A DNA stretch of 64,000 nt. It comes from an uncultured Candidatus Babeliaceae bacterium (GTDB taxonomy: Bacteria; Babelota; Babeliae; Babelales; Babelaceae). How positions within the stretch are numbered: position 1 is the first letter of the stretch; each line of letters starts with the position of its first letter. Both the position numbers and the translations under genes were made by a program. The notes under the pieces are model-generated. The model made no database searches and had not been told where the DNA came from. It saw only the letters and a program-made list of their open reading frames with translations. Below, piece after piece: positions 3,088 to 17,545 of the stretch. Location of the stretch: positions 384,001-448,000 of the forward strand of contig OY969927.1 in the NCBI GenBank assembly GCA_963704655.1, in the 5' to 3' direction.

Positions 3088-3115
3088 CCGCTCATCCTGA
3101 GCCTGTCGAAGGGTT
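3088..3115. repeat. REP-like element
   Basis: CCGCTCATCCTGAGCCTGTCGAAGGGTT, nearly the reverse complement of the core of the 4670-4708 copy. Confidence 0.75.
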
Positions 3116-3288
3116 AGCGAATTTAAAAAATATAAATTTCTTATCTTATTAGTTTACACAAACATCGTTTAATAATTAAGGGGCATTAAAGAATTTTTAA
3201 GATATATCTATAAGAATTGTAGTAAAACTTTATATACTTATATTAAGTAAGAAAAATTAGAGAAATATTATGCGACGCAAAAGGGGTA

Positions 3289-4575: not shown

Positions 4576-4708
4576 GCCGTCCCTCGATACTAAACTTCGA
4601 CTTCGCTCAGTTTCACTCGGGATGAGCGGCGGCAGACAGGCGACTGTTGTAAATAACAATCACTTTCAATTCCCAACCCTTCGACGGGCTCAGGATGAGC
4701 GGTGGGAA
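4576..4708. repeat. Two REP-like elements upstream of the recombinase
   Basis: 4576-4630 (CCCTCGATAC...CTTCGACTTCGCTCAG...GGGATGAGCGG, nested) and 4670-4708 (CCCTTCGACGGGCTCAGGATGAGCGG). Confidence 0.75.
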
Positions 4709-4880
4709 AATTGGTCAATAAAGACCAGAAAAAGTATAAAACTTTAAAGAATGCGATTGATTAGCGATAAAATCGATCTGTGGCTGCAAATCTTTTAAAA
4801 TGGCACCCCAATTGTGTATAATGCTACTTATATACAATATGCGTCAATTTTGACGATCTAGACAGTTTAAAGGAGCTGTA

Positions 4881-5846
4881 ATGAAGAATAATACTATTGC
4901 GTTAACAAGTAGCCGTGAACTTACTCACGAGCAGGCGTTATTTTTAAAAAAGGAAGCCGTTTGGAAAAACTTGGCCGACATCACCGTCGCGCAAGCGGTC
5001 AAGCAATGGCTGGCTACCCTCAAAAGTATAACAGCAAAAAATTACACAAGTGGCATTAAACAACTTGCCAAGTGTAAGCTGATAGACATGAAACTTTCCC
5101 TACAGCTTTTTTCACTTATTAACCATGATGCCATTATAGACCAGATAAAAATTTTACCCGAACTTTCTGAATGCTCCAAGCAAGCGCGCGCGGCGTGTTA
5201 TATTTCGTTCACCCGTTTTTTATCCAGAAGAACGCAGGGAGTTATACCAAAAGCAACCCCAAGTCGCGAAGGTGTTTCAAAGACTTTTTATAGGGTACGG
5301 GATAAAGTGGCTACCGAGGCAATGACCCGTGCGCAATGGACAGACTTTTTGGATGAACTCCACAAAATCAATCCACGGGATTGCCTTATTGCAAAGGTTA
5401 TTTTACAAGGGGGCAAAAGGTTATCAGAAGTTTTAAGCCTGACAACTGATAAAATTGATTTTATTAAACGTGAGATTACTTTTAGACAATCAAAGACAAA
5501 GGGCTATGAAAAAGAGACGGTAATAACGTATCCACAAACTATACTTGATGAACTGAAAAGTTATCTTGATGGTCGGCAAGGTCTTGTCTTTGTAACCAAT
5601 AAATTTAAACCGATTATGCCTAACCAACTTGCCGTTACCTTTGAAAGAGCCGGTGTCGCTGCCGGAGCACCCTTTAAGGTTACCCCGCACGTCCTGCGCG
5701 CATCGGCAATCACCTATTTAAAATTGTCCGGATATTCTGATAGTGATATCATGAAAATTTCAGGGCATGCCAACTCAGCCATGGTTAATGCTTACGACAA
5801 AAGCGACCGTGCACTTAATATTAGTAAAAAAGTGAGTTTAGTATAA
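4881..5846 (+). CDS. Tyrosine recombinase/integrase, chlamydial plasmid Pgp8 (pGP8-D)-like
   Basis: Catalytic R (GGKR), HxLR (TPHVLRA), GH and Y (AYDKS). Motifs QARAACYISFTRFL, LQGGKRxSEVLSL, ITYPQ and SDSDIMKxxGHA match my recollection of Chlamydia pGP8-D. AAGGAG RBS. Confidence 0.9.
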   Translation: MKNNTIALTSSRELTHEQALFLKKEAVWKNLADITVAQAVKQWLATLKSITAKNYTSGIKQLAKCKLIDMKLSLQLFSLINHDAIIDQIKILPELSECSKQARAACYISFTRFLSRRTQGVIPKATPSREGVSKTFYRVRDKVATEAMTRAQWTDFLDELHKINPRDCLIAKVILQGGKRLSEVLSLTTDKIDFIKREITFRQSKTKGYEKETVITYPQTILDELKSYLDGRQGLVFVTNKFKPIMPNQLAVTFERAGVAAGAPFKVTPHVLRASAITYLKLSGYSDSDIMKISGHANSAMVNAYDKSDRALNISKKVSLV

Positions 5847-6058: not shown

Positions 6059-7783
6059 ATGAAAATAAAATTACTTTCACTACTTACGTTACTTGCAGCG
6101 CTGCAGATTCATGCGACAGAAGTTGCACCGCAAGCTGCAATTCCAGCAATTACTTTTACTGCATATCTCCATACTCCCCTTTTTACTCTTAAGGGCCATA
6201 CACAGAGTGAAAACTCGAGTGAAAACCCGAGTGTAAACTCTATCGTATTTTCACCTGATGGTACAAAAGTTGTTACTGCTTCAGATGATAAAACTGCAAA
6301 AATCTGGGATGTTGCAACGGGTGAATTACTGCACACGCTTAAAGGTCATACAGGCTATGTGTGGTCAGCCGCATTTTCACCTAATGGCAACTATATTGTT
6401 ACTGCTTCAGCAGACGGTACTGTAAAAATCTGGGATGTTGCAAATGGTACATTAATAAGAACTCTTGAGGGTCATACAGATTGGGTGATATCAGCCGCAT
6501 TTTCACCCGATAGCAGTAAATTAGTGACTGCATCCAATGATAGAACTGCAAGAATTTGGGATGCTTCAACTGGTCAAATACTACACATTCTTAAAGGGCT
6601 TGTATTATCTGCTGCATTTTCTCCTGATGGCACCAAAGTGGTGACTACATCACTAGATGGATCAACAGGAGTTTGGGATGCACGAGTTTGGGATGCACAA
6701 ACCGGTACATCCATCTTTTCACTTGCAGGTGCTTCTTGGGCAAATGATGCCGCTTTTTCACCAGATGGCACTAAAATAGTTACCGCTGTTGGAGATAACG
6801 CAAAAATCTGGGAAGTGGAAACTGGTGCTTTAATCCGCACTCTTGTAGGGCATACGCAAGGGGTAAGCTTTGCCGCCTTTTCGCCAGATGGCAGGTATGT
6901 TGTTACTGCTTCTTGGGATAATACAGCAAGAATCTGGGATGTTGAAACTGGTCAACTACAACACACACTTAAAGGACATACATATAAGTTAATATTCGCG
7001 ACATTTTCAGCCGATGGGAACTATGTTGTTACTGCTTCTTGGGATAATACTGTACGTCTCTGGGATGCTTCAAATGGACAAGAAGTATTACGAATTAGCA
7101 CACGTTCATATGGTAATGAAGAGATTATTTGGAAACCAATAGACAAAAATCATGTAATAAGTAAACCAGGAAATGATTTATCCTCCGCTGCATTTTCACC
7201 TGATGGCACCAAAGTAGCTACTGGTTGTTATAATGGCACGATAAAAATTTGGGATATTACTCAAGCGCTATTTCAGTATGAAAAATTTATAACTATAAAA
7301 TCTATTACTGATTTAAAAGAAAAATTTGAAAACATAAAAGATAAAATCTACAAGAAATTGCGCGTATTAAACACAATGTTTGCTGATCCATTATTAACTG
7401 AAAGTGAAAAGAAAAATATACATACTTTTGCTCAGAGACTGAATGGATTAAACATTTTGGGAACACAAAAGAGTAGAGAAGGTGGTATTAGAGGCGCCAT
7501 AGATACTCGGCTTATAGCTTTAAATAACTTACCAATGGAATTAGAAAAAGCCAATAATGCCCGACAGTTTGCTGATTTTAAAAAGAAGATGCTTGATATC
7601 AACAGTGATTTACAAAAAATTGAAACCCGAATGCGCGAAATCTTTCAAGATTCTCAAGTAGTTGAGCAACGCTACCAAGATGCTCTCAAGCAGAGAAGAT
7701 TTAAGGGGACCGCATATTTAGGAATGAGAAAACCCAAATCAGCTCAGGCTCAGGCGGCTCAAGAAGAACCGGAAATAGATTAA
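6059..7783 (+). CDS. Secreted WD40 protein 1 (8 repeats, coiled-coil C-terminus)
   Basis: Signal peptide MKIKLLSLLTLLAALQIHA; GH...FSPDG...TAS.D.TAKIWD repeats. Confidence 0.92.
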   Translation: MKIKLLSLLTLLAALQIHATEVAPQAAIPAITFTAYLHTPLFTLKGHTQSENSSENPSVNSIVFSPDGTKVVTASDDKTAKIWDVATGELLHTLKGHTGYVWSAAFSPNGNYIVTASADGTVKIWDVANGTLIRTLEGHTDWVISAAFSPDSSKLVTASNDRTARIWDASTGQILHILKGLVLSAAFSPDGTKVVTTSLDGSTGVWDARVWDAQTGTSIFSLAGASWANDAAFSPDGTKIVTAVGDNAKIWEVETGALIRTLVGHTQGVSFAAFSPDGRYVVTASWDNTARIWDVETGQLQHTLKGHTYKLIFATFSADGNYVVTASWDNTVRLWDASNGQEVLRISTRSYGNEEIIWKPIDKNHVISKPGNDLSSAAFSPDGTKVATGCYNGTIKIWDITQALFQYEKFITIKSITDLKEKFENIKDKIYKKLRVLNTMFADPLLTESEKKNIHTFAQRLNGLNILGTQKSREGGIRGAIDTRLIALNNLPMELEKANNARQFADFKKKMLDINSDLQKIETRMREIFQDSQVVEQRYQDALKQRRFKGTAYLGMRKPKSAQAQAAQEEPEID

Positions 7784-9300
7784 AGGGACACTATGAAGAT
7801 ACAATTACTTTCACTACTTACGCTACTTGCAGTGCAGCAGATTCATGCGACAGAAGTTGCACCGCAAGCTGCAATTCCAGCAAGTACTTTTACCGCGTAT
7901 ATCGATATTCCCCTTTTGACCCTTAAAGGACATGCCCAAAGTCTACGTTCAGCAGCTTTTTCACCAGATGGCACTAAAATAGTGACTGCTTCAGCTGATG
8001 CAACTGCAAAAATCTGGGATGCAAAAAATGGCGCATTACTCTTTACTCTTGAAGGGCATACAGCTTCTGTAAACGCAGCGCAATTTTCACCTGATGGTAA
8101 GTATATAGTCACGGCTTCAGCTGATAATACTGCAAAAATTTGGAGTGTTGAAACTGGCCAATTACTGCACACGCTTGAAGGGCATACAAAGCCGGTATCA
8201 TCAGCCTCATTTTCACCTGATGGTACCAAAGTCGTTACTGCTTCACTAGATGGATCAACAAGAGTTTGGAATGTTGCAACTTGGCAATTACAATACACTC
8301 TTCAGGGCCATACAAAGAGGGTATCCTCAGCACAATTTTCACCAGATGGCACTAAAATAGTTACAGCTTCTGCTGATGAAACTGCAAAAATCTGGGATGC
8401 TTCAACTGGTCAAGTACTACACATTCTTAAAGGTCATCCAGATGGGGTCTATTCTGCTTCATTTTCACCTGATGGCAAATTTATTGTTACTATCTTCCAT
8501 AAAGCGGCAAAAATCTGGGATGCCCAAACTGGTGCTTTAATAAGAGATCTTATAGGTCATACAGAATTTGTACTTTCAGCAGCTTTTTCACCTGATGGCA
8601 GGTATGTTGTTACTGCTTCATGGGATACTACTGCAAAAATCTGGGATGTCCAAACTGGTAGATTTATAATAACTCTTCACCATACAGGTTGGGTAAACTC
8701 TGCCTCTTTTTCTCCTGATGGCACAAAAGTTGTTACTACTTCAACGGATGGTACTGCAAAAATCTGGGATGTTACCCAAGAGCTATTTTATTATGAAAAA
8801 TTAATAACTTCAAAATCTATTGATGCTTTAAAAGCAAAATTTGAAAATATTAGAAATGAAATTTATGAAAAACTGCACGTATTGAACGCAATGTTTGGTG
8901 ATCCTGTATTAACTGAAGATTTTGACAAGAAAAGAATACACGAACTTGCTCAAGAACTTTATAAATTAAACATTTTGGGAACACAAAAGAGTAGAGAAGG
9001 TGGTATTAGAGGCGCCATAGATACACGGGTTATAGCTATAAATAACTTACCAATGGAATTGGAAAAAACTAATAATGCCCGCCAGTTTGCTGATTTTAAA
9101 AAGAAGATGCTTGATATCAACAGTGATTTACAAAAAATTGAAACCCGAATGCGCGAAATCTTTCAAGATTCTCAAGTAGTTGAGCAACGCTACCAAGATG
9201 CTCTCAAGCAGAGAAGATTTAAGGGGCCGCATATTTAGGAATGAGAAAACCCAAATCAACTCAAGCTCAGGCGGCTCAAGAAGAACCGGAAATAGATTAA
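7447..9300 (+). repeat. Near-identical ~337-bp direct repeat (7447-7783 and 8965-9300) encoding the C-terminal module of WD40 genes 1 and 2
   Basis: Sequence aligns base for base with a few substitutions and one 1-bp deletion. Confidence 0.95.
7793..9238 (+). CDS. Secreted WD40 protein 2 (7 repeats, coiled-coil C-terminus); tail frameshifted, would otherwise end at 9300
   Basis: Same signal peptide; 1-bp loss at GGGG 9223-9226 relative to gene 1. Confidence 0.9.
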   Translation: MKIQLLSLLTLLAVQQIHATEVAPQAAIPASTFTAYIDIPLLTLKGHAQSLRSAAFSPDGTKIVTASADATAKIWDAKNGALLFTLEGHTASVNAAQFSPDGKYIVTASADNTAKIWSVETGQLLHTLEGHTKPVSSASFSPDGTKVVTASLDGSTRVWNVATWQLQYTLQGHTKRVSSAQFSPDGTKIVTASADETAKIWDASTGQVLHILKGHPDGVYSASFSPDGKFIVTIFHKAAKIWDAQTGALIRDLIGHTEFVLSAAFSPDGRYVVTASWDTTAKIWDVQTGRFIITLHHTGWVNSASFSPDGTKVVTTSTDGTAKIWDVTQELFYYEKLITSKSIDALKAKFENIRNEIYEKLHVLNAMFGDPVLTEDFDKKRIHELAQELYKLNILGTQKSREGGIRGAIDTRVIAINNLPMELEKTNNARQFADFKKKMLDINSDLQKIETRMREIFQDSQVVEQRYQDALKQRRFKGPHI

Positions 9301-9314
9301 AAAAAATGGACAGT

Positions 9315-10949
9315 ATGAAGATAAAATTACTTTCACTACTTGTACTATTCGCGGTGCAGCAGATTAATGCGACAGAAGTTGCACCGCAAGCTACAATTCC
9401 AGCAATTACTTTTACTGCATATCTCCATACTCCCCTTTTTAACCTTAAAGGCCATACAAGTTTGATATTCTCAGTAGCCTTTTCACCAGATGGTAAATAC
9501 ATAGCCACAGCTTCAGCAGATGGAACTGCAAAAATATGGGATGCTCAAACAGGTGCTTTAATAATAACTCTTGCTCGTGAAGGAAATACAGAAAGTGTAT
9601 ACTCAGCAGCTTTTTCACCAGATAGCACCAAAGTAGTTACTGCAGAATGGGATGATACTGCAAAAATATGGGACATTACCCAAACGCTCATCAAGTATGA
9701 AAAAATTAAAAGAGAAGCTGCTACTTCAAAGGGTAGTACTACAAAAACTTGGGTTGCAGTGACGGGAAATCCGCTCTATATTCTGCAACACAAAGGCTCG
9801 GTAAACTCAGCACAATTTTCACCTGATGGGACCAAAGTTGTGACTGCTTCATGGGATAACACCGCAAAAATCTGGAATGCTCAAACTGGTGCTTTAATAA
9901 TAACTCTTGAGGGTCATACAGCTTTGTTAGACATTGCCATATTCTCACCAGATGGTACAAAAATTGTTACTGTTTCACGGGATAAAACGGCAAAAATCTG
10001 GGATGTTGCAACTTGGCAATTACAATACACTCTTGAAGGTCATACAGATTGGGTGAATTCAGGCTCATTTTCACCCGATAGCAGTAAATTAGTGACTGCG
10101 TCCAATGATAAAACAGCAATGATTTGGGATGTTACAACGGGTGAACATTTAAACATCCTTAAAGGGCATACAGATTCTGTAAACTCTGCTTTATTTTCAC
10201 CAGATGGCAAATACATAGCAACAGCTTCAGTAGATGGCACTGCAAAAATCTGGGATGTTGCAACTTATGCTTTAGTCTGCACATTTAAGGGGCATAAAGA
10301 TCATGTAAGCTTTGCACACTTTTCACCCGATGGAAAATATATTGTTACTGCATCCAATGATGGAACTGCAAAAATTTGGGATGCCGCAACGGGAACTTTA
10401 ATCTGGACGCTTAAGGGGCATACAAATAGAGTTATAGAAGCACTATTTTCACCTGATGGGACAAAAGTAATGACTGCTTCATGGGATAATACTGCCAAAG
10501 TTTGGGATGTTACCCAAGCGTTATTTCAGCATGAAAAAATTAAAACACTAAAAACTATTGATAATTTACAAAAAATATTTGAAGGAATCAGATATCTGAT
10601 TCATAAGAAATTAGCTATACTCAGCAACTTATTTGCCGATGAATCGGTATCCCCAGAGCTTAAAAAGAAGTTAATGGAAATTGGTAAAAGACTTAATGGA
10701 TTAAACATTAATGGTGCCAAGAATGCAAGAGGCAATGCGATAAATAAAGAATTAGAAGCACATTTAGAAAAAACCAATAACGCGCAACAACTTGCTGTTA
10801 TTAAAAAACGCATAAACACTCTAGACCAAGAATTACAACGCATTCAAACCAGACTGGAAGCAATTAATCAAGAATCTCAGGCTATTGAAGAAACTATACC
10901 AGAAGATGTTAGACAGCGGGCTGCGAAAGCATATGGACAGCGCACTTAG
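9315..10949 (+). CDS. Secreted WD40 protein 3 (8 repeats, coiled-coil C-terminus)
   Basis: Probable start is the in-frame ATG at 9315 (MKIKLLSLLVLFAVQQINA) with GGA RBS, matching the paralogues. Confidence 0.9.
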   Translation: MKIKLLSLLVLFAVQQINATEVAPQATIPAITFTAYLHTPLFNLKGHTSLIFSVAFSPDGKYIATASADGTAKIWDAQTGALIITLAREGNTESVYSAAFSPDSTKVVTAEWDDTAKIWDITQTLIKYEKIKREAATSKGSTTKTWVAVTGNPLYILQHKGSVNSAQFSPDGTKVVTASWDNTAKIWNAQTGALIITLEGHTALLDIAIFSPDGTKIVTVSRDKTAKIWDVATWQLQYTLEGHTDWVNSGSFSPDSSKLVTASNDKTAMIWDVTTGEHLNILKGHTDSVNSALFSPDGKYIATASVDGTAKIWDVATYALVCTFKGHKDHVSFAHFSPDGKYIVTASNDGTAKIWDAATGTLIWTLKGHTNRVIEALFSPDGTKVMTASWDNTAKVWDVTQALFQHEKIKTLKTIDNLQKIFEGIRYLIHKKLAILSNLFADESVSPELKKKLMEIGKRLNGLNINGAKNARGNAINKELEAHLEKTNNAQQLAVIKKRINTLDQELQRIQTRLEAINQESQAIEETIPEDVRQRAAKAYGQRT

Positions 10950-10967
10950 AGAATTAAAAGGACACTT

Positions 10968-12590
10968 ATGAAAATAAAATTATTTTTACTACTTACAATA
11001 CTGGCAGTGCAGCATGCACATGCAGCAGAAGTTGCGCCGCAGGTTGAAGCACCACAGGTGATTATAGTAAACACCCCTGTTCTTACTCTGAATGATCCAA
11101 ACAATTTTGAAACAGCCTCATTTTCACCTGATGGTAGATATTTTGTTGCTACTGCAGGTTTGGCTGCACAAATTTGGAGCGTTGAAAATCGTGCATTAGT
11201 ACGCACTCTTGAAGGCCAGACAAAGATGGTCACATCGGCTCGATTCTCTCCCGATAGCAGATATATTGTTACTACATACTGGGATGGCGCTACTAAAATC
11301 TGGGATGCTGCAACTGACAAAGAAATAAGACCTCTTATAGGTCATACATTTTGGGTATGGAGAGCGGCATTTTCACGCGATGGAAGATTTATAGTTACCG
11401 CTAGCATGGATGGCACTGCAATTATTTGGGAAGTTGCTACTGGTAAGAAGATTCGCACAATAACAATCGATCGAGATATTGCTTATTCAGCCACGTTCTC
11501 ACCTGATGGTACAAAAGTTGCTATTGCTTTAAGTAATAATATCGCACAAATTTGGGATATCAAAACAGGTCAACAACTTACCACACTTATCGGCCATACA
11601 AGCGAGGTAGTAGATGTTGCATTTTCACCTGATGGCACTAAAATTGCTACTGGTTCAGCAGATCACACGATAAAAATTTGGAATCCGCAGACTGGTCAAA
11701 TAATCCGTACACTTAATGGCCATACCGGAGCTATAAACTCTATTGAGTTTTCACCATATGGCAACTATGTGCTTTCTGCATCTTATGATGGCACTGCAAG
11801 AATCTGGGATGTTGAAACTGGTCAAGAAGAAATTCGAATCACTGGCCATACTGACCACGTGAATTCGGCCTCATTTTCACCTGATGCAAACAAAGTAATC
11901 ACAGCCTCAAATGATAAAACCGCAAAAATGTGGGACATCAGAAACTTGCTCATTAATGAAAAAAAAGGACCGTTTAAAAATCTGATTTCCTATTTAAAAC
12001 AAACACTTGATAATCTCAAAAAAGAATTTTTTAACGAAGTTAATAAAGGTGCACGTACAGAGTTGCCGGGCACAAACCCGGAAGAAACTGCACATATACC
12101 TGAAATGCCATCGTCACATGCTTGGCGAGTTTGGCAGGCGGATCCAAACAACAAAGGCTCGATGCCTGCGCAAGAAGTGATACCATTCCTATGGAAAAAA
12201 AGAAAAAGTTTAGTTCAACAGTTTAATGCTTTAAAAGTGAGAATCGATGATTTTGAAAGAGCAGTTGATGCGGCTCAAATGGTAAATGAGCTTGAAACTA
12301 TCAGAAATACGGGCAAACAAATTATGACCGATTTAGAGCACGTTAAAAATATAGGTGTCGCTCAGTTTATAAAAGTTGTGCGTATTAAACATATGATTAA
12401 TGAGCTACAAAACCAGTTAGCCGGTTTGCCAGATTTACAAGAAAGAATTAATGGACTTGATGATGCTATTGAGCACTCTCAAACTGAAGGTGAGATTATA
12501 AGAGTCACTCAAGAATTAGAAATAATTAAAAACCAGATCCCCCAAGTACGAACAAGTACAAAGCGTAAAGCAGAGGAGATTTCTCAATGA
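10968..12590 (+). CDS. Secreted WD40 protein 4 (7 repeats, distinct helical C-terminal domain, KRK tail)
   Basis: Signal peptide MKIKLFLLLTILAVQHAHA; WD40 repeats. Confidence 0.92.
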   Translation: MKIKLFLLLTILAVQHAHAAEVAPQVEAPQVIIVNTPVLTLNDPNNFETASFSPDGRYFVATAGLAAQIWSVENRALVRTLEGQTKMVTSARFSPDSRYIVTTYWDGATKIWDAATDKEIRPLIGHTFWVWRAAFSRDGRFIVTASMDGTAIIWEVATGKKIRTITIDRDIAYSATFSPDGTKVAIALSNNIAQIWDIKTGQQLTTLIGHTSEVVDVAFSPDGTKIATGSADHTIKIWNPQTGQIIRTLNGHTGAINSIEFSPYGNYVLSASYDGTARIWDVETGQEEIRITGHTDHVNSASFSPDANKVITASNDKTAKMWDIRNLLINEKKGPFKNLISYLKQTLDNLKKEFFNEVNKGARTELPGTNPEETAHIPEMPSSHAWRVWQADPNNKGSMPAQEVIPFLWKKRKSLVQQFNALKVRIDDFERAVDAAQMVNELETIRNTGKQIMTDLEHVKNIGVAQFIKVVRIKHMINELQNQLAGLPDLQERINGLDDAIEHSQTEGEIIRVTQELEIIKNQIPQVRTSTKRKAEEISQ

Positions 12591-13897
12591 AAATAAAATT
12601 GCTTTCATTACTTATACTTGCGGTAATAACCGCAAAGCACATACACGCGTCTGAAAAATTGGAAGAGTTAAAAGAGAAAGCGGTGTATGGGAATATGATG
12701 TCGCTTGAAATCCCCACTATATCACTTATAGGTAACCAGGGTGCGGTCTTTCCTGCCTCTTTTTCACTTGATGGCATGCAAATAGTTACCGCTGGAGATG
12801 ATGGGATCGTAAGAATCTGGGACGCGCAAACGGGAAAATTACTCCAAACGCTTACTGGCCATACAATGGCAATAGGTTCGGCGGTCTTTTCACCAGATGG
12901 TGATCAAGTAGTCTCTGTTTCGCTTGATGGTACAGTACGTATATGGAACGCTCAAACGGGCACATTACTACAGGAAATTATAGTTTCTGCTGGGGCATTA
13001 TTTTCGGTAGCATTTTCACCTGATGGCACAAAAATAGCTGCTGCAGGTGCTGATGGAAATGTAAGAATCTTTAATGCAAAAAATGGTGAATTATTACAAG
13101 TAATTACTGGCAATACCAAAGAGGTAACTTCAGTGGCCTTTTCAGCAGATGGTGAATGTATACTCACTGCAGGCGCTGATGGCAGCATAAGAATGTGGAA
13201 TATTGAAACGGGTGAAGAAAGACTCACGCTTACGGGACGAGATACGAGCCCAGTATATTCGGCCTCTTTTTCATCTGATGATGCGTACATAGTTTTTGCT
13301 GGCGCAGATGGAATTGTAAGAATCTGGGATGTTGCCAAGCACACATTAGTAGGAAAACTTATTGGCCATGCCAAAGCAATATCTTCAGTGGCATTTTCAG
13401 ATGATAGCCGATTAATTGTTTCGGCTTCAAAGGATAATACAGCAAAAATCTGGGATGTCCAAACAGGGCAATTAATCCGCACCCTTAATCTTCAAGACAA
13501 CGTCAACTCAGCCTCTTTCTCGCCTGATGGCACGAGCATCGTTACTGCGTGCCAAGATGGTAGCGTAACGATTTGGGATATCAGCAAAACTGTTAACTGG
13601 GTAGAGGATGGAAAACTTGTTTGCCCGATATGCACCATGCGATTCCCTTTTAGAAATAATTTTAATTCACACATGTTCTTTGAGCATCCACTAGCTTCTG
13701 CTAAAAACCCTGAGGGAAAGCCTAAGTTGGCGCGCGCGAAAAAAAAGAAGGCTACGCCCAAGTTAAAAACAATTGGCAAAAAGAAACCTGCGCCCGCTGC
13801 ACCCATAACAGAACCGGTAATAGAGCCGATAGTTCAAGAAGCACCTGCATTAACTCCAGAGCAAGAGGAAGAACTCATTAAAGAGCTTCTTATATAA
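12587..13897 (+). CDS. Secreted WD40 protein 5 with C2H2 zinc finger and Lys-rich tail
   Basis: 7 WD40 repeats; CPICTMRFPFRNNFNSHMFFEH (C-x2-C-x12-H-x4-H); KKKK...KKKP. Confidence 0.9.
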   Translation: MKIKLLSLLILAVITAKHIHASEKLEELKEKAVYGNMMSLEIPTISLIGNQGAVFPASFSLDGMQIVTAGDDGIVRIWDAQTGKLLQTLTGHTMAIGSAVFSPDGDQVVSVSLDGTVRIWNAQTGTLLQEIIVSAGALFSVAFSPDGTKIAAAGADGNVRIFNAKNGELLQVITGNTKEVTSVAFSADGECILTAGADGSIRMWNIETGEERLTLTGRDTSPVYSASFSSDDAYIVFAGADGIVRIWDVAKHTLVGKLIGHAKAISSVAFSDDSRLIVSASKDNTAKIWDVQTGQLIRTLNLQDNVNSASFSPDGTSIVTACQDGSVTIWDISKTVNWVEDGKLVCPICTMRFPFRNNFNSHMFFEHPLASAKNPEGKPKLARAKKKKATPKLKTIGKKKPAPAAPITEPVIEPIVQEAPALTPEQEEELIKELLI

Positions 13898-13928
13898 ATA
13901 GAATAAGTTTTATTAAAAAAGGGACAGT

Positions 13929-15212
13929 ATGAAGATAAAATTACTTTCACTACTTTCGTTACTGGCAGTTCAGCAGATTCATGCGGCAGAAGTTGCACAA
14001 GTGTCACAAGGCACTTCAGCGTATGCCATTGCGCAGGCGCTGCGGCCATTAGCTATCATTAATAACAATGGTGAAATCAATAGCGCAGCAATTTCACCCG
14101 ATGGCAAATACATAGTTACCACGTCTCTTAATACAGCACCAAAAATTTGGAATGCTCAAACTGGTGAATTCATCAGGGAGCTTTCTGCCCGGAACACAAT
14201 GCAAGCAAGATTTTCACCTGATGGCAAAAAAGTTGCTGTTATCAGTAGCGATATAATAATTTTTGATACCGAAACAGGAAATGTAGAAATGCGCTTAGCT
14301 TTCAGATTTTCTCACCCAGGCGCTGGCATTAGTACAAAAAGTTTGGCATTTTCAGCCGATGGAACTAAAATTATCAGCGGTGAAGAATATGGTACAAAAA
14401 TTTGGAATACCGCAAATGGTAAAGAAATTATACATATACTGTCAGGAGATACAGACGCTGTAGCATTTTCACCTGATAGTAATCAAGTTCTGACTTCTTC
14501 TAAAAAAAGCGAACGCCAAAAGCGGGGGATTGAAAAAACAGTGATGCTTTGGGATGCTTCAAATGGCCAATTAATACATACTTTTGATGGTCAACATTGG
14601 GGCGCTTCATTTTCTCCTGATGGAAGTCAAATAATTATGTGCTCAGATAGTAATGTTGCCGAAGTTTTTAATACCCAGGCGCTCAATAGAACTCATTGGC
14701 TTAAAGTGGTACCTCCCAGCAATATTTTCACTCCTGAGGAAATGCAATCAGCCGCCTTTTCTCCTGACGGTGAGATAGTTACTGTATCTTTAGCAGAGCA
14801 TGCGCGATTGTGGGATGCTCAAACTCGCAAGATAAAATCAACATTTGATACTTCAACCCCCAATGCTGAAATGAGCTCTATACATCCAGATTCATTTGCA
14901 CGTGATGGTAAGTTTGTTCCTCTTTTAAGGATAAAACCTCATTATGACTTAGCAAATATAGTAGAAGTTTTTAATATCGGTCAACTAGAAATTAAAGAAT
15001 ATTTCAAGAATAAATTATTACCTCTTAAGCAACAATCACTTTTAGTAACGTTGGACGCGCTTTCACGCCAAAAAAATGGCCGGCCCATTAAAAAAAGTGA
15101 TCTTGTTGCCGACCCAAGACAAGATACATCAGCATTATTCAAAGGAATGCCACAACGCGTTATAGATGCCTTAAAGCGTGTATATAAAATTGATGAGGAT
15201 GTTTTTATATAA
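13929..15212 (+). CDS. Secreted WD40 protein 6 (divergent repeats) with C-terminal helical module shared with the 61851-63335 protein
   Basis: Signal peptide; about 7 degenerate FSPDG blades; PLKQQSLLV...LFKGMP...YKID. Confidence 0.9.
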   Translation: MKIKLLSLLSLLAVQQIHAAEVAQVSQGTSAYAIAQALRPLAIINNNGEINSAAISPDGKYIVTTSLNTAPKIWNAQTGEFIRELSARNTMQARFSPDGKKVAVISSDIIIFDTETGNVEMRLAFRFSHPGAGISTKSLAFSADGTKIISGEEYGTKIWNTANGKEIIHILSGDTDAVAFSPDSNQVLTSSKKSERQKRGIEKTVMLWDASNGQLIHTFDGQHWGASFSPDGSQIIMCSDSNVAEVFNTQALNRTHWLKVVPPSNIFTPEEMQSAAFSPDGEIVTVSLAEHARLWDAQTRKIKSTFDTSTPNAEMSSIHPDSFARDGKFVPLLRIKPHYDLANIVEVFNIGQLEIKEYFKNKLLPLKQQSLLVTLDALSRQKNGRPIKKSDLVADPRQDTSALFKGMPQRVIDALKRVYKIDEDVFI

Positions 15213-15320
15213 AAACTGATTTCTTATCCTCAATAGCTTTGAAACTCTTTCTTTTTAATAGTTGCCCATACTATAATTATAATAACAATAGGAAATTATT
15301 TTTTTTAAAGAGGGCGACTT

Positions 15321-16664
15321 ATGAAGTTAAAATCACTTTCACTACTTATATTACTAGCGTTTCAACATGCACATGCAGATGTGGTTATAGTAACAACACC
15401 TGCTCTTACCCTGAATAGCCGAACAACATTGCAAGCAGCATCATTTTCTCCTGGTTCTCCTGGTGGCACTCAAATAGTCACAGCTGGCGGTAAATTCGCC
15501 GAAACATGGGACGCTGCAACTGGTAAGTTATTGGATACTTTTATAGGACATGCTGATACTATTACTTCAGCACAGTTTGCACCTTATGGCACTGAAGTTA
15601 TTACTGCGTCCAATGATAAAAAAGCAATGATTTGGGATGTTAATTCCCCTCTAGGACTGCCAATGGAGCTTAATCATAAAGCCGCGGTAAGATCAGCAAC
15701 ATTTTCAAACCATGGCTACACAGTTCTTACTGCTTCAGGCAACGATGTTATACTTTGGCAGGCTGGAAGAGGTAAAGAAATCTATAAATTTTCGCCTTCT
15801 CCTCATCGAATAAATTCAGCGTCATTGTCACCTGATAGATACAAAGTCGCTATTGCCTTAGAGGATAATTCGGTACAAATTTGGAATATGGATACCGATC
15901 GACTATTTCAAGTATTTCAAGGTCGTTCTGACGCCGAAGCATTTTCACCTCAACTATTTAAAACATTAACCGGCCATACAAGCGCGGTCCTCTCTGTTGC
16001 ATTTTCACGCGATGGTAAATACATAGTTACTGCTTCAGCAGACGGTACTGCAAAAATCTGGGAGGTGGAAACTGGTGCTTTAATCCGCACTCTTGTAGGG
16101 CATACGCAAGGGGTAACCTCAGCAGAATTTTCACCGAATGGCAAGTATGTGCTTTCTGCTTGCGGTGATGGCGAAGTAAGAATCTGGGACATTGAAACTG
16201 GTCAAGACGTAATTCAAATCATGGCGCATGCTGGCCGGGTGAATTCGGCACAATTTTCACCTGATGGTACTAAAATTGTTACTGCATCTAATGATAAAAC
16301 CGCAAAAATTTGGGATGTTGGCCAAATACTCAAAGATTATGAAGCAAAGCCAAAAGAACTCAAAAAGCCTCAGGCGGTTCCCCAAGTATTAACACCACAA
16401 CAAGAAATTGATCGCATTTTAACTCTACAAGCTAACTTTGATAAACTAAATTTTTCCAATTTTTCAAAAGATGAAATCCAAAGAAAAAAAGAGGATTTAG
16501 CATATAAAATTTTTAATCTTGTACCAGGTTCATCGCAGGATGAAATAAAAAAAGTTTACAAGAAATTAGCCCTCCAACTTCATCCTGATAAAAATCCAGA
16601 TCCTCAAGCAAAGCCTGCATTTCAGATAGTTAATAATGCTTACTCAGCACTTACTGTTAAATAA
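15321..16664 (+). CDS. Secreted WD40 protein 7 with C-terminal DnaJ (J) domain
   Basis: WD40 repeats; EIKKVYKKLALQLHPDKN...AFQIVNNAY. Confidence 0.92.
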   Translation: MKLKSLSLLILLAFQHAHADVVIVTTPALTLNSRTTLQAASFSPGSPGGTQIVTAGGKFAETWDAATGKLLDTFIGHADTITSAQFAPYGTEVITASNDKKAMIWDVNSPLGLPMELNHKAAVRSATFSNHGYTVLTASGNDVILWQAGRGKEIYKFSPSPHRINSASLSPDRYKVAIALEDNSVQIWNMDTDRLFQVFQGRSDAEAFSPQLFKTLTGHTSAVLSVAFSRDGKYIVTASADGTAKIWEVETGALIRTLVGHTQGVTSAEFSPNGKYVLSACGDGEVRIWDIETGQDVIQIMAHAGRVNSAQFSPDGTKIVTASNDKTAKIWDVGQILKDYEAKPKELKKPQAVPQVLTPQQEIDRILTLQANFDKLNFSNFSKDEIQRKKEDLAYKIFNLVPGSSQDEIKKVYKKLALQLHPDKNPDPQAKPAFQIVNNAYSALTVK

Positions 16665-16676
16665 GAATAAGTAAAT

Positions 16677-16710
16677 AAAGAAGGGAGAGTTTTTAAACTC
16701 TCCCTTCTTT
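16677..16710. terminator. Bidirectional intrinsic terminator
   Basis: 16-bp perfect inverted repeat AAAGAAGGGAGAGTTT/AAACTCTCCCTTCTTT between convergent genes. Confidence 0.85.
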
Positions 16711-17545
16711 ATTTGTCTTTTAATTCCGGATCAGATAAATCTAGATGATCATCTATAACTTTAAAACGCTCAATTGCAAGCGCTTTGCCCGATTTTTTAT
16801 CGATAGTAAGTATAATGCCGTGCATATGATACGGGCCTTCAAGCTCGACTTCAAACTTAACCGGCATTTGGGTTAATAAGTTGTGCAAGATCGCATGGCG
16901 TTTCATGCCGATCATAGAATTAATCGCGCCGCCCATGCCAATATCAGAAATATAGGCTGTGCCTAACGGAAAAATTCGTTCATCTGCAGTTTGCACATGC
17001 GTGTGCGTGCCATAAACGCAACTTACTTGTCCATCAAGAAAATAGCCCAGCCCCATCTTTTCTGAGGTAACTTCAGCATGCATATCAACAATGATACAGT
17101 TTGTTTGCGGCTTTAAAAACATTATAGCAGATTCTGCAGCTTTAAAAGGGCAACTTAAAAGCTCGCGCATAAATACGCGCCCCTGAACATTAATAACGCC
17201 GACCGTTACACCGGCAACCGTAAAGGTGGTAACCCCAACCCCCGGCGTTGACGCAGGAAAGTTTGCCGGACGCAACAGATCTTTATGACTCGAAAGGTAA
17301 CTATAAATATCACGTTTTGCAAAAATATGGTTTCCACTGGTAACAACGTTAGCGCCGTAGTGCTTTAAAAAATCAACAATGGCCGGAGTGATCCCGCGGC
17401 CATCACTTGCGGTATTTTCACCATTAACGATAACACCATCAATTGCATATTTTTGTTTTAATGCAGAAAGGTGTTTTTTGAACATTGCACGACCTGGTGT
17501 TCCCATAAGGTCGCCAATACAGAGTATCTTTAAATTATCGTGCAT
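16709..17545 (-). CDS. ymdB: YmdB/TIGR00282 family metallophosphoesterase
   Basis: IGD, NGEN, TSGNH, LLRPAN, DMHAEVTSEK, GTHTHVQTAD; follows rny. Start chosen at ATG 17545. Confidence 0.93.
   Translation of the reverse strand: MHDNLKILCIGDLMGTPGRAMFKKHLSALKQKYAIDGVIVNGENTASDGRGITPAIVDFLKHYGANVVTSGNHIFAKRDIYSYLSSHKDLLRPANFPASTPGVGVTTFTVAGVTVGVINVQGRVFMRELLSCPFKAAESAIMFLKPQTNCIIVDMHAEVTSEKMGLGYFLDGQVSCVYGTHTHVQTADERIFPLGTAYISDIGMGGAINSMIGMKRHAILHNLLTQMPVKFEVELEGPYHMHGIILTIDKKSGKALAIERFKVIDDHLDLSDPELKDK

Follow-up and report, generated by a model that had tools for sequence, protein, structure and literature searches.

In the 64,000-nucleotide stretch of DNA analysed here (the window, positions 384,001-448,000 of contig OY969927.1, the single 1,298,077-bp contig, 38% GC, of the 1.3-Mb, 96%-complete genome of an uncultured Candidatus Babeliaceae bacterium), seven plus-strand genes, g1 to g7, lie head-to-tail at 6059-16664 between a gene for a tyrosine recombinase and ymdB. 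The genes share one plan, a signal-like N-terminus followed by WD40 units (blades) and a variable tail. PF00400 matches all seven proteins, and all seven begin with a basic start and a hydrophobic core, by composition putative signal peptides. The signal-like peptide is about 20 amino acids (aa) long, the first repeat begins within 45-65 aa, each gene holds seven or eight units (51 in total), and the tails, which are related and helical in g1-g3, range from 83 to 216 aa. A single-sequence AlphaFold model of g2 (pLDDT 75.6) showed a seven-bladed propeller plus helices, and its comparison with the seven-bladed WRAP-T (root-mean-square deviation 1.0, target TM-score 0.97) identifies the fold as a WD40 beta-propeller. 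The repeats of this array form a mosaic at the DNA level, which was probably produced by ectopic homologous recombination among in-register WD40 repeats, remixing the binding surfaces of exported WD40 proteins.

An earlier note on this DNA had picked out three patches shared between genes of the array, and all three were found exactly where it had placed them (Table 1): patch 1, shared by g1 and g7, is identical at 66 of 67 positions, patch 2 (g1 and g3) at 76 of 82, and patch 3 (g2 and g3) at all 32. As it had also said, g1 and g7 are otherwise divergent, their blades averaging 60% nucleotide identity and their fifth blades (g1b5 and g7b5) agreeing at only 34 of 56 positions beyond the patch. 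The remark that the patches sit at different blade numbers holds for patches 2 and 3; patch 1 occupies the fifth FSPD unit from the N-terminus in both genes. To score such patches, the 51 units were aligned to a 42-codon frame, and identity runs weighted by column conservation were evaluated in two phases over 1275 blade pairs. Patch 1 scored 59 and 58 bits against mean null maxima of 27 and 32 (p 0.001 and 0.002), with a global p of 0.001-0.002 under codon-column permutation and 0.003-0.010 in single-tree simulations; counted post hoc, 20 of its 21 degenerate codons are identical, where 8.7 would be expected. Since it carries one difference in 67 bp inside blades that are about 60% alike, patch 1 is far younger than the array.

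The excess of shared DNA is not limited to this patch. Tracts of at least 20 bits numbered 14 and 12 in the two phases against 3.5 and 3.6 expected from codon permutation (p 0.001), and the excess persisted over simulations on a single maximum-likelihood tree with site rates and site base profiles (p 0.003-0.013 across three rate scales). A triplet test with 40 permutations per phase detected 24 mosaic blades against a mean of 14.1 (maximum 22) and 36 against 18.9 (maximum 33). We recorded 26 tracts altogether, 5 within a gene, 10 between neighbouring genes and 11 between genes two to six places apart. They cover 42-49% of the WD40 DNA of g1-g3, 21% in g7, 11% in g4 and 0% in g5 and g6, where no common tract was found among the scored blade pairs; exchange across the array, as first proposed, thus narrows to g1-g3 mostly, with less in g7 and g4. 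The collinear blade order that whole-gene duplication would leave was found in none of the 21 gene pairs, g1/g2 with their common ends included (the best pair, g4/g7, gave p 0.07), and whole-gene duplication therefore fails to explain the patches.

Blade g7b5 is a chimera. Its codons 8-15 agree with g1b2 at 24 of 24 positions and with g1b5 at 12 of 21, its codons 21-37 agree with g1b2 at 35 of 51 and with g1b5 at 51 of 51, and the switch falls in the common AKIW codons at 16050-16063. Of the two conserved cores put forward as crossover sites, AKIWD (codons 14-22) contains 8 of the 20 junctions between overlapping tracts and FSPDG none, in a descriptive count of junctions that are not independent and that include low-scoring tracts; overall the junctions spread over many codons and show no common site. 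The clearest breakpoint lies beyond the propeller, at 7447/8965 in the g1 and g2 tails, where identity rises from 76% to 97% (p 0.0005). The longest identical DNA, 144 bp, is likewise in these tails and not in the blades, and the high identity extends beyond the gene junction and into the signal peptide that follows. Exchange of DNA between genes is thus borne out by the tract excess, the lack of collinearity, the chimeric g7b5 and the tail breakpoint; what does not stand is the blade as its unit, which is usually a part of a blade, 15-82 bp long. The frame of g2 ends 27 codons sooner than that of g1 because one base is missing at 9223-9227 (near 9226), which may be a real frameshift or a sequencing error. 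In g3, unit 2 is followed by a stretch resembling the start of a C-terminal tail (9612-9815), suggesting, as far as the letters can tell, a fused remnant of another gene's end with its last blade left inside. Exchange with genes beyond the array was considered and rejected, only five short BLAST matches being found.

Table 1. Features of the array and its surroundings (window positions; nucleotide identities as identical/compared).
Feature	Position	Strand	Description
Tyrosine recombinase gene	4881..5846	+	212 bp upstream of the array; context
g1	6059..7783	+	signal-like N-terminus, 8 WD40 units, helical tail; 574 aa
g1 5' region	6103..6185	+	47 bp identical to g2 (7837), overlapping 48 bp identical to g3 (9394)
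Patch 2, g1 copy	6461..6542	+	crosses blade boundary; partner 10029-10110 in g3
Patch 1, g1 copy	6800..6866	+	AKIW core through strand d and d-a loop
g1 tail tract	7447..7783	+	327/336 identical to 8965-9301; preceding part 158/207
g2	7793..9238	+	signal-like N-terminus, 7 WD40 units, helical tail homologous to g1 tail
Patch 3, g2 copy	8271..8302	+	partner 10003-10034 in g3
g2 tail tract and downstream spacer	8965..9301	+	partner of 7447-7783
g3	9315..10949	+	8 WD40 units; tail 36-38% identical to g1 and g2 tails
Patches 3 and 2 in g3	10003..10110	+	blade 4/5; patch 3 (10003-10034) abuts patch 2 (10029-10110)
g4	10968..12590	+	7 WD40 units; unrelated tail without Pfam match
g5	12587..13897	+	7 WD40 units; tail with weak C2H2 zinc-finger-like motif (under Pfam cut-off)
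g6	13929..15212	+	7 strongly diverged WD40 units, 26% aa identity
g7	15321..16664	+	7 WD40 units; C-terminal DnaJ (J) domain with HPD motif (PF00226, E 8.8e-17)
Left half of chimeric blade g7b5	16026..16063	+	37/38 identical to g1 blade 2 (6398-6435); overlaps patch 1 at 16050-16063
Patch 1, g7 copy	16050..16116	+	right half of chimeric blade g7b5
Long hairpin, 20 pairs	16671..16716		closes the array; terminator-like on both strands (consensus scan only)
recA	21041..22108	-	TIGR02012 over cut-off; general recombination present

Could constraint and chance have generated such a pattern? WD40 motifs, AT-rich codon bias and common ancestry would yield identity runs among 1275 pairs, the background synonymous identity among the blades is 58%, many short exact matches fall in the FSPDG and AKIWD cores, and both patches 2 and 3 taken singly and a PHI-like test, given below, stay within this null. 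Our scores, however, are weighted by conservation, and patch 1 nevertheless spans the variable strand d and d-a loop with a global p of 0.001-0.01, while the tail tract of g1 and g2 and a 219-bp match in a second array (below) cannot arise in this way. We therefore reject this explanation for patch 1 and for the tails, and its overall probability is slight.

An assembly artefact is also unlikely. The genome is metagenome-derived, one base differs in the g2 tail, and our support comes not from raw reads but from short-read contigs at about 3x depth (32 of 82 pieces listed), so one may imagine that during assembly or polishing one paralogue was overwritten by reads of another. The patches nonetheless carry mismatches and keep the frame, and the whole genome forms one 1.3-Mb contig. 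At 6483-6794, 7477-7747 and 10070-10277, contigs assembled from short reads in two studies agree with the window without a difference, across tract ends into gene-specific flanks, and the 3' part of the g1 copy of patch 2 together with its flank is matched without differences by an independent short-read contig. The g1, g3, g4 and g7 proteins are identical on three database contigs (the longest 1,307,222 bp), possibly from the same sample, and the same pattern is seen in other genomes; overwriting is thus improbable. The contigs matching the window without differences at about 3x depth come from a soil and a marine study (runs X1 and X2); runs X3 and X4 share only small word fractions, which are not evidence of habitat. 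Bins left uncovered in these contig matches carry no weight either way, and three joints there have short sides and are probably derived from other organisms. Looked for as a trace of a second strain, a 36-base patch pattern gave 0 matches in metagenome contigs.

The case for exchange is stronger in the second array and in the relatives than in the three patches alone. About 385 kb from the window array, the same genome carries four further signal-peptide WD40 genes (G000:C1:1970-6716), in which 219 bp are identical between two adjacent genes at different blade positions (codon 100 in one, codon 186 in the other), and repeats of 124 and 114 bp occur inside genes; the blades are only 52% like those of the window array. 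Of the 41 genomes of the family, 36 have WD40 matches, and several show large expansions. Next to ymdB, at the syntenic site, the congener G004 carries five WD40 genes whose tails and blades are different (L012:7574-14449); it also has a second pair (L013:1169-3797) in which near-identical blades are shuffled and the number of blades differs (5 against 6). In another congener, G002, two genes (L011:9876-12318, on G002:C9) carry 14 near-identical blades (79% aa identity) that are 88% identical between the genes (synonymous difference, pS, 0.16) and 87% within a gene, whereas the gene termini are 73-81% identical (pS 0.31-0.42); here identical d-a loop codons are combined with different b-c loops, which is a reassortment. 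The second array and the congener arrays show fresher shuffling than the window array does. Across ten groups, the tract tests gave p<0.05 for the maximum in five (one at the edge of 0.05) and for the count in six, and a correlation-decay test gave p<0.05 in six of nine other groups; the permutation test is powerless for whole-blade identity.

Large WD40 families with long N-terminal extensions and the same variable codons were also seen in G006 (L014-L018), G033 (L131-L136) and G044 (L137-L141); in G006 the WD40 genes are interleaved with ankyrin-like repeat genes, and the G044 arrays contain many frameshifted fragments and carry little weight because these are possibly assembly errors. The g6 tail was not linked to congener tails by BLAST at E 1e-3, and a likeness is visible by eye.

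Array growth itself offers another explanation, in which blades or segments were re-amplified from neighbours, or turned over by birth and death, and the patches are frozen one-off junctions rather than products of recurrent conversion. The g1/g2 identity that crosses the gene junction into the next signal peptide looks like a tandem duplication, 15 of the 26 tracts join the same or adjacent genes, and independent amplification from single blades has been described (PMC9218822). In the window 31 of 34 units, and overall 434 of 444 (units of at least 36 codons, kin not being independent), have their nearest neighbour in their own array, a pattern that is not specific to exchange because lineage-specific amplification produces it too. 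The 11 tracts between genes two to six places apart and the youth of patch 1 speak against such a history, which we consider improbable; it differs from recurrent exchange mainly in frequency, because sub-blade chimeras need crossovers inside a repeat anyway.

The shared and reshuffled blades vary at particular codons. In the Podospora HNWD proteins, fungal NLRs, two codon pairs in the d-a loop and b-c turn are under diversifying selection (PMC1805685), and the variable positions are 10, 11, 12, 14, 30, 32 and 39 (PMC12222747). We mapped these hotspots by motif and spacing, without alignment to HET-E, to unit codons 34, 35, 36, 38, 12 and 14. In the window, five of the seven most variable codons are among these six positions; the number is six of seven in four of the relatives and ranges from three to six across ten groups, and in G002 the variation is nearly confined to them. 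The analogy with HNWD drawn in the earlier note is therefore better than its author could show, since equivalent positions vary, although the proteins themselves are not HNWD NLRs. Variability alone is not new, because hotspot diversity in repetitive WD40 proteins had already been noted (PMC5587647). The ratio of nonsynonymous to synonymous change (dN/dS) at the hotspot codons, crudely counted in five groups, was 0.98 in the second array (saturated), 2.7 in G002 (p 0.0002), and 2.1 and 1.5 in two relatives.

Several results weigh against exchange in the window array. Singly, neither patch 2 (global p 0.08) nor patch 3 (global p 0.2-0.5) reaches significance, and patch 3 therefore counts solely within the overall tract excess. 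The PHI-like incompatibility test gave p 0.89-1.0 in all four runs, opposite to recombination, probably confounded by the clustering of variable sites. Of the two phases, just one gave a significant decay of correlation (linkage disequilibrium) in the window, the other giving p 0.07-0.13 and a further run p 0.088, and in phase 0 of the triplet test the smallest p was equalled by 20% of permutations. At the six hotspot codons the window array has a dN/dS of 0.80, by the same crude and here saturated count, which detected no positive selection in it. No contig among the 32 of 82 pieces listed spans patch 1. In a search for a second strain, the g1 tail matched only itself among 493 candidates, with no allele showing change in progress, and g7 had no close relative among the 120 matches listed. 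Exchange described as ongoing is consequently unproven, and with a synonymous difference of 0.48 among the g1-g3 blades that part of the first proposal is not borne out, even if some activity at present may be imagined. The RecA, RuvB, MutS and MutL families in the genome (profile matches) speak for homologous recombination, yet the presence of MutS and MutL should disfavour exchange at 60-70% identity.

Weighing all this, we retain ectopic recombination among repeats as the likely source of the mosaic. The array would encode WD40 beta-propellers that are exported, probably as adaptors with which a protist parasite acts on its host; binding would fall to the propeller and the action to the tail (J domain, zinc finger or helical bundles). 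The propellers may have been built from one pool of repeats of about 126 bp, and copies in g1-g3, less so in g7 and g4, would later have swapped pieces of 15-340 bp by conversion and unequal crossing-over, presumably through the RecA pathway; any direction of transfer we infer likewise. Such exchange would occur in register, with conserved cores such as the AKIWD codons serving as homology, and would recombine the two variable binding-face loops, the b-c turn and the d-a loop, while keeping the frame. Because the b-c turn and the d-a loop after it lie on either side of AKIWD (WD40 anatomy as given in PMC1805685), a crossover near this core would remix the binding face and keep the fold, and binding faces in the array may have been under selection. 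A further reading, in our judgement somewhat less than an even bet, is that Babeliales converged on the HNWD strategy for offence, with a recombining pool of blades, AKIWD crossovers reassorting the two loops and positively selected top-face codons; G002 is the best case for it. If it is true, the bacteria would hold a stock of host-binding surfaces that can be renewed and joined to interchangeable tails, and the window array would be an ageing member still exchanging at 60-70% identity, of which congeners of the G002 type are the active state.

The neighbourhood raises one more possibility, that the exchange is driven by a dedicated diversifier, either the tyrosine recombinase beside the array or a retroelement. 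The recombinase gene lies immediately upstream, and the cumulative GC-skew of the genome peaks inside the array (genome position 398,657, window about 14,657); together these place the array in the replication terminus region. We found no evidence that the recombinase acts on the array, the junctions are scattered over many codons, the genome (G000) has no PF00078 (RVT_1) match to indicate a reverse transcriptase, exchange is fresher in the second array far from this site, and G002 suggests exchange without a recombinase nearby. We thus give this possibility next to no credence. The RecA of the genome has its best match at 70% and another at 66%, both Babeliales-named, some of the remaining top matches being labelled otherwise. 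A promoter scan stayed at chance level (37 against 31.2), and an Rfam scan returned one tRNA and nothing else. Elsewhere in the window, a short repeated element occurs in two intergenic regions (3090-3125 and 4670-4710), where contigs of other organisms match too, and RNase Y is apparently split into overlapping open reading frames (18650-19084 and 17535-18653, together 17535-19084), which may reflect a frameshift or a sequencing error. J-domain ends with HPD were seen in two signal-peptide WD40 proteins, g7 (Pfam match) and that at G000:C1:760804-762309 (by eye); judged from sequence, the two are possible recruiters of host Hsp70.

As a process, ectopic recombination among repeats is nothing unusual; its products can be compared with several known systems. 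Like the array, the fungal HNWD/NWD NLRs (het-d, het-e; Paoletti 2007, PMC1805685; Ament-Velasquez 2025, PMC12222747) exchange WD40 repeats both inside a paralogue and from one paralogue to another, their repeats cluster by genome and not by orthologue, and variability lies beside a conserved Val in the d-a loop and beside Asp in the b-c turn. Unlike HNWD, which has a NACHT NTPase and an N-terminal HET (cell-death) domain, g1-g7 have no NACHT in their tails scanned to E 0.1, and their N-termini are signal-like peptides followed by the repeats; the variable C-terminal tail and the bacterial tandem arrangement also set them apart. HNWD repeats are 80-100% identical, whereas those within genes of the array are about 0.45-0.70 identical in nucleotides, G002 with 0.87 meeting the range, and the positive selection known in HNWD is not demonstrable in the window array. 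The array is best read as HNWD-like in process and not as an NLR.

Bacterial repetitive WD40 proteins are usually explained by one-off amplification of blades followed by decay. The array shares recent blade amplification and diverse hotspot residues with the repetitive prokaryotic proteins of Hu 2017 (PMC5587647) and of Pereira and Lupas 2022 (PMC9218822). Its mean within-gene aa identity of 0.26-0.61, a mean and not Hu's six-repeat rule, falls short of the highly repetitive class (at least 0.7), while the moderately repetitive class (at least 0.4) roughly fits g1-g3 and g5 (45-61%) and also G002 (79%). These papers, as far as their available text goes, explain the similarity by internal duplication, and 'conversion', 'recombination' and 'concerted' are absent from their main texts; in the array, by contrast, sub-blade pieces are common to several genes, and in the array and its relatives DNA has moved between paralogous propellers in such pieces, with variation on the binding face. 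This predicts a rule, crossovers between the two binding loops, and would also offer natural blade-swap libraries for propeller engineering.

Among intracellular bacteria, Wolbachia ankyrin genes (Siozios 2013, PMC3563639) likewise encode repeat proteins with chimeric repeats, recombining at short direct repeats, mostly within genes or between strains, whereas the array recombines WD40 repeats between paralogues of one array. The PEX/NEX effectors of Parachlamydiaceae, amoeba symbionts (Domman 2014, PMC4209131), are also tandem eukaryote-like effector genes, shaped by birth and death with little recombination, in contrast to the excess of recombination tracts here. Closest by lineage are the secreted repeat proteins of Babela massiliensis and other Dependentiae (PMC4378268, PMC4776705), with WD40 and DnaJ domains, tandem duplications and predicted secretion; these reports list domains, and the portions available mention neither repeat exchange nor hotspot variation. 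The literature searched, which mostly left subscription papers and supplements outside its scope, yielded no description of WD40 repeats being exchanged in Dependentiae. Delivery to the protist host and action in it would follow from this lineage (PMC4378268). If the pattern proves true across strains, an obligate protist parasite would share the diversification logic of fungal immune receptors, in exported proteins. The array takes its place among the moderately repetitive WD40 proteins of bacteria and alongside the repeat proteins secreted by Dependentiae.

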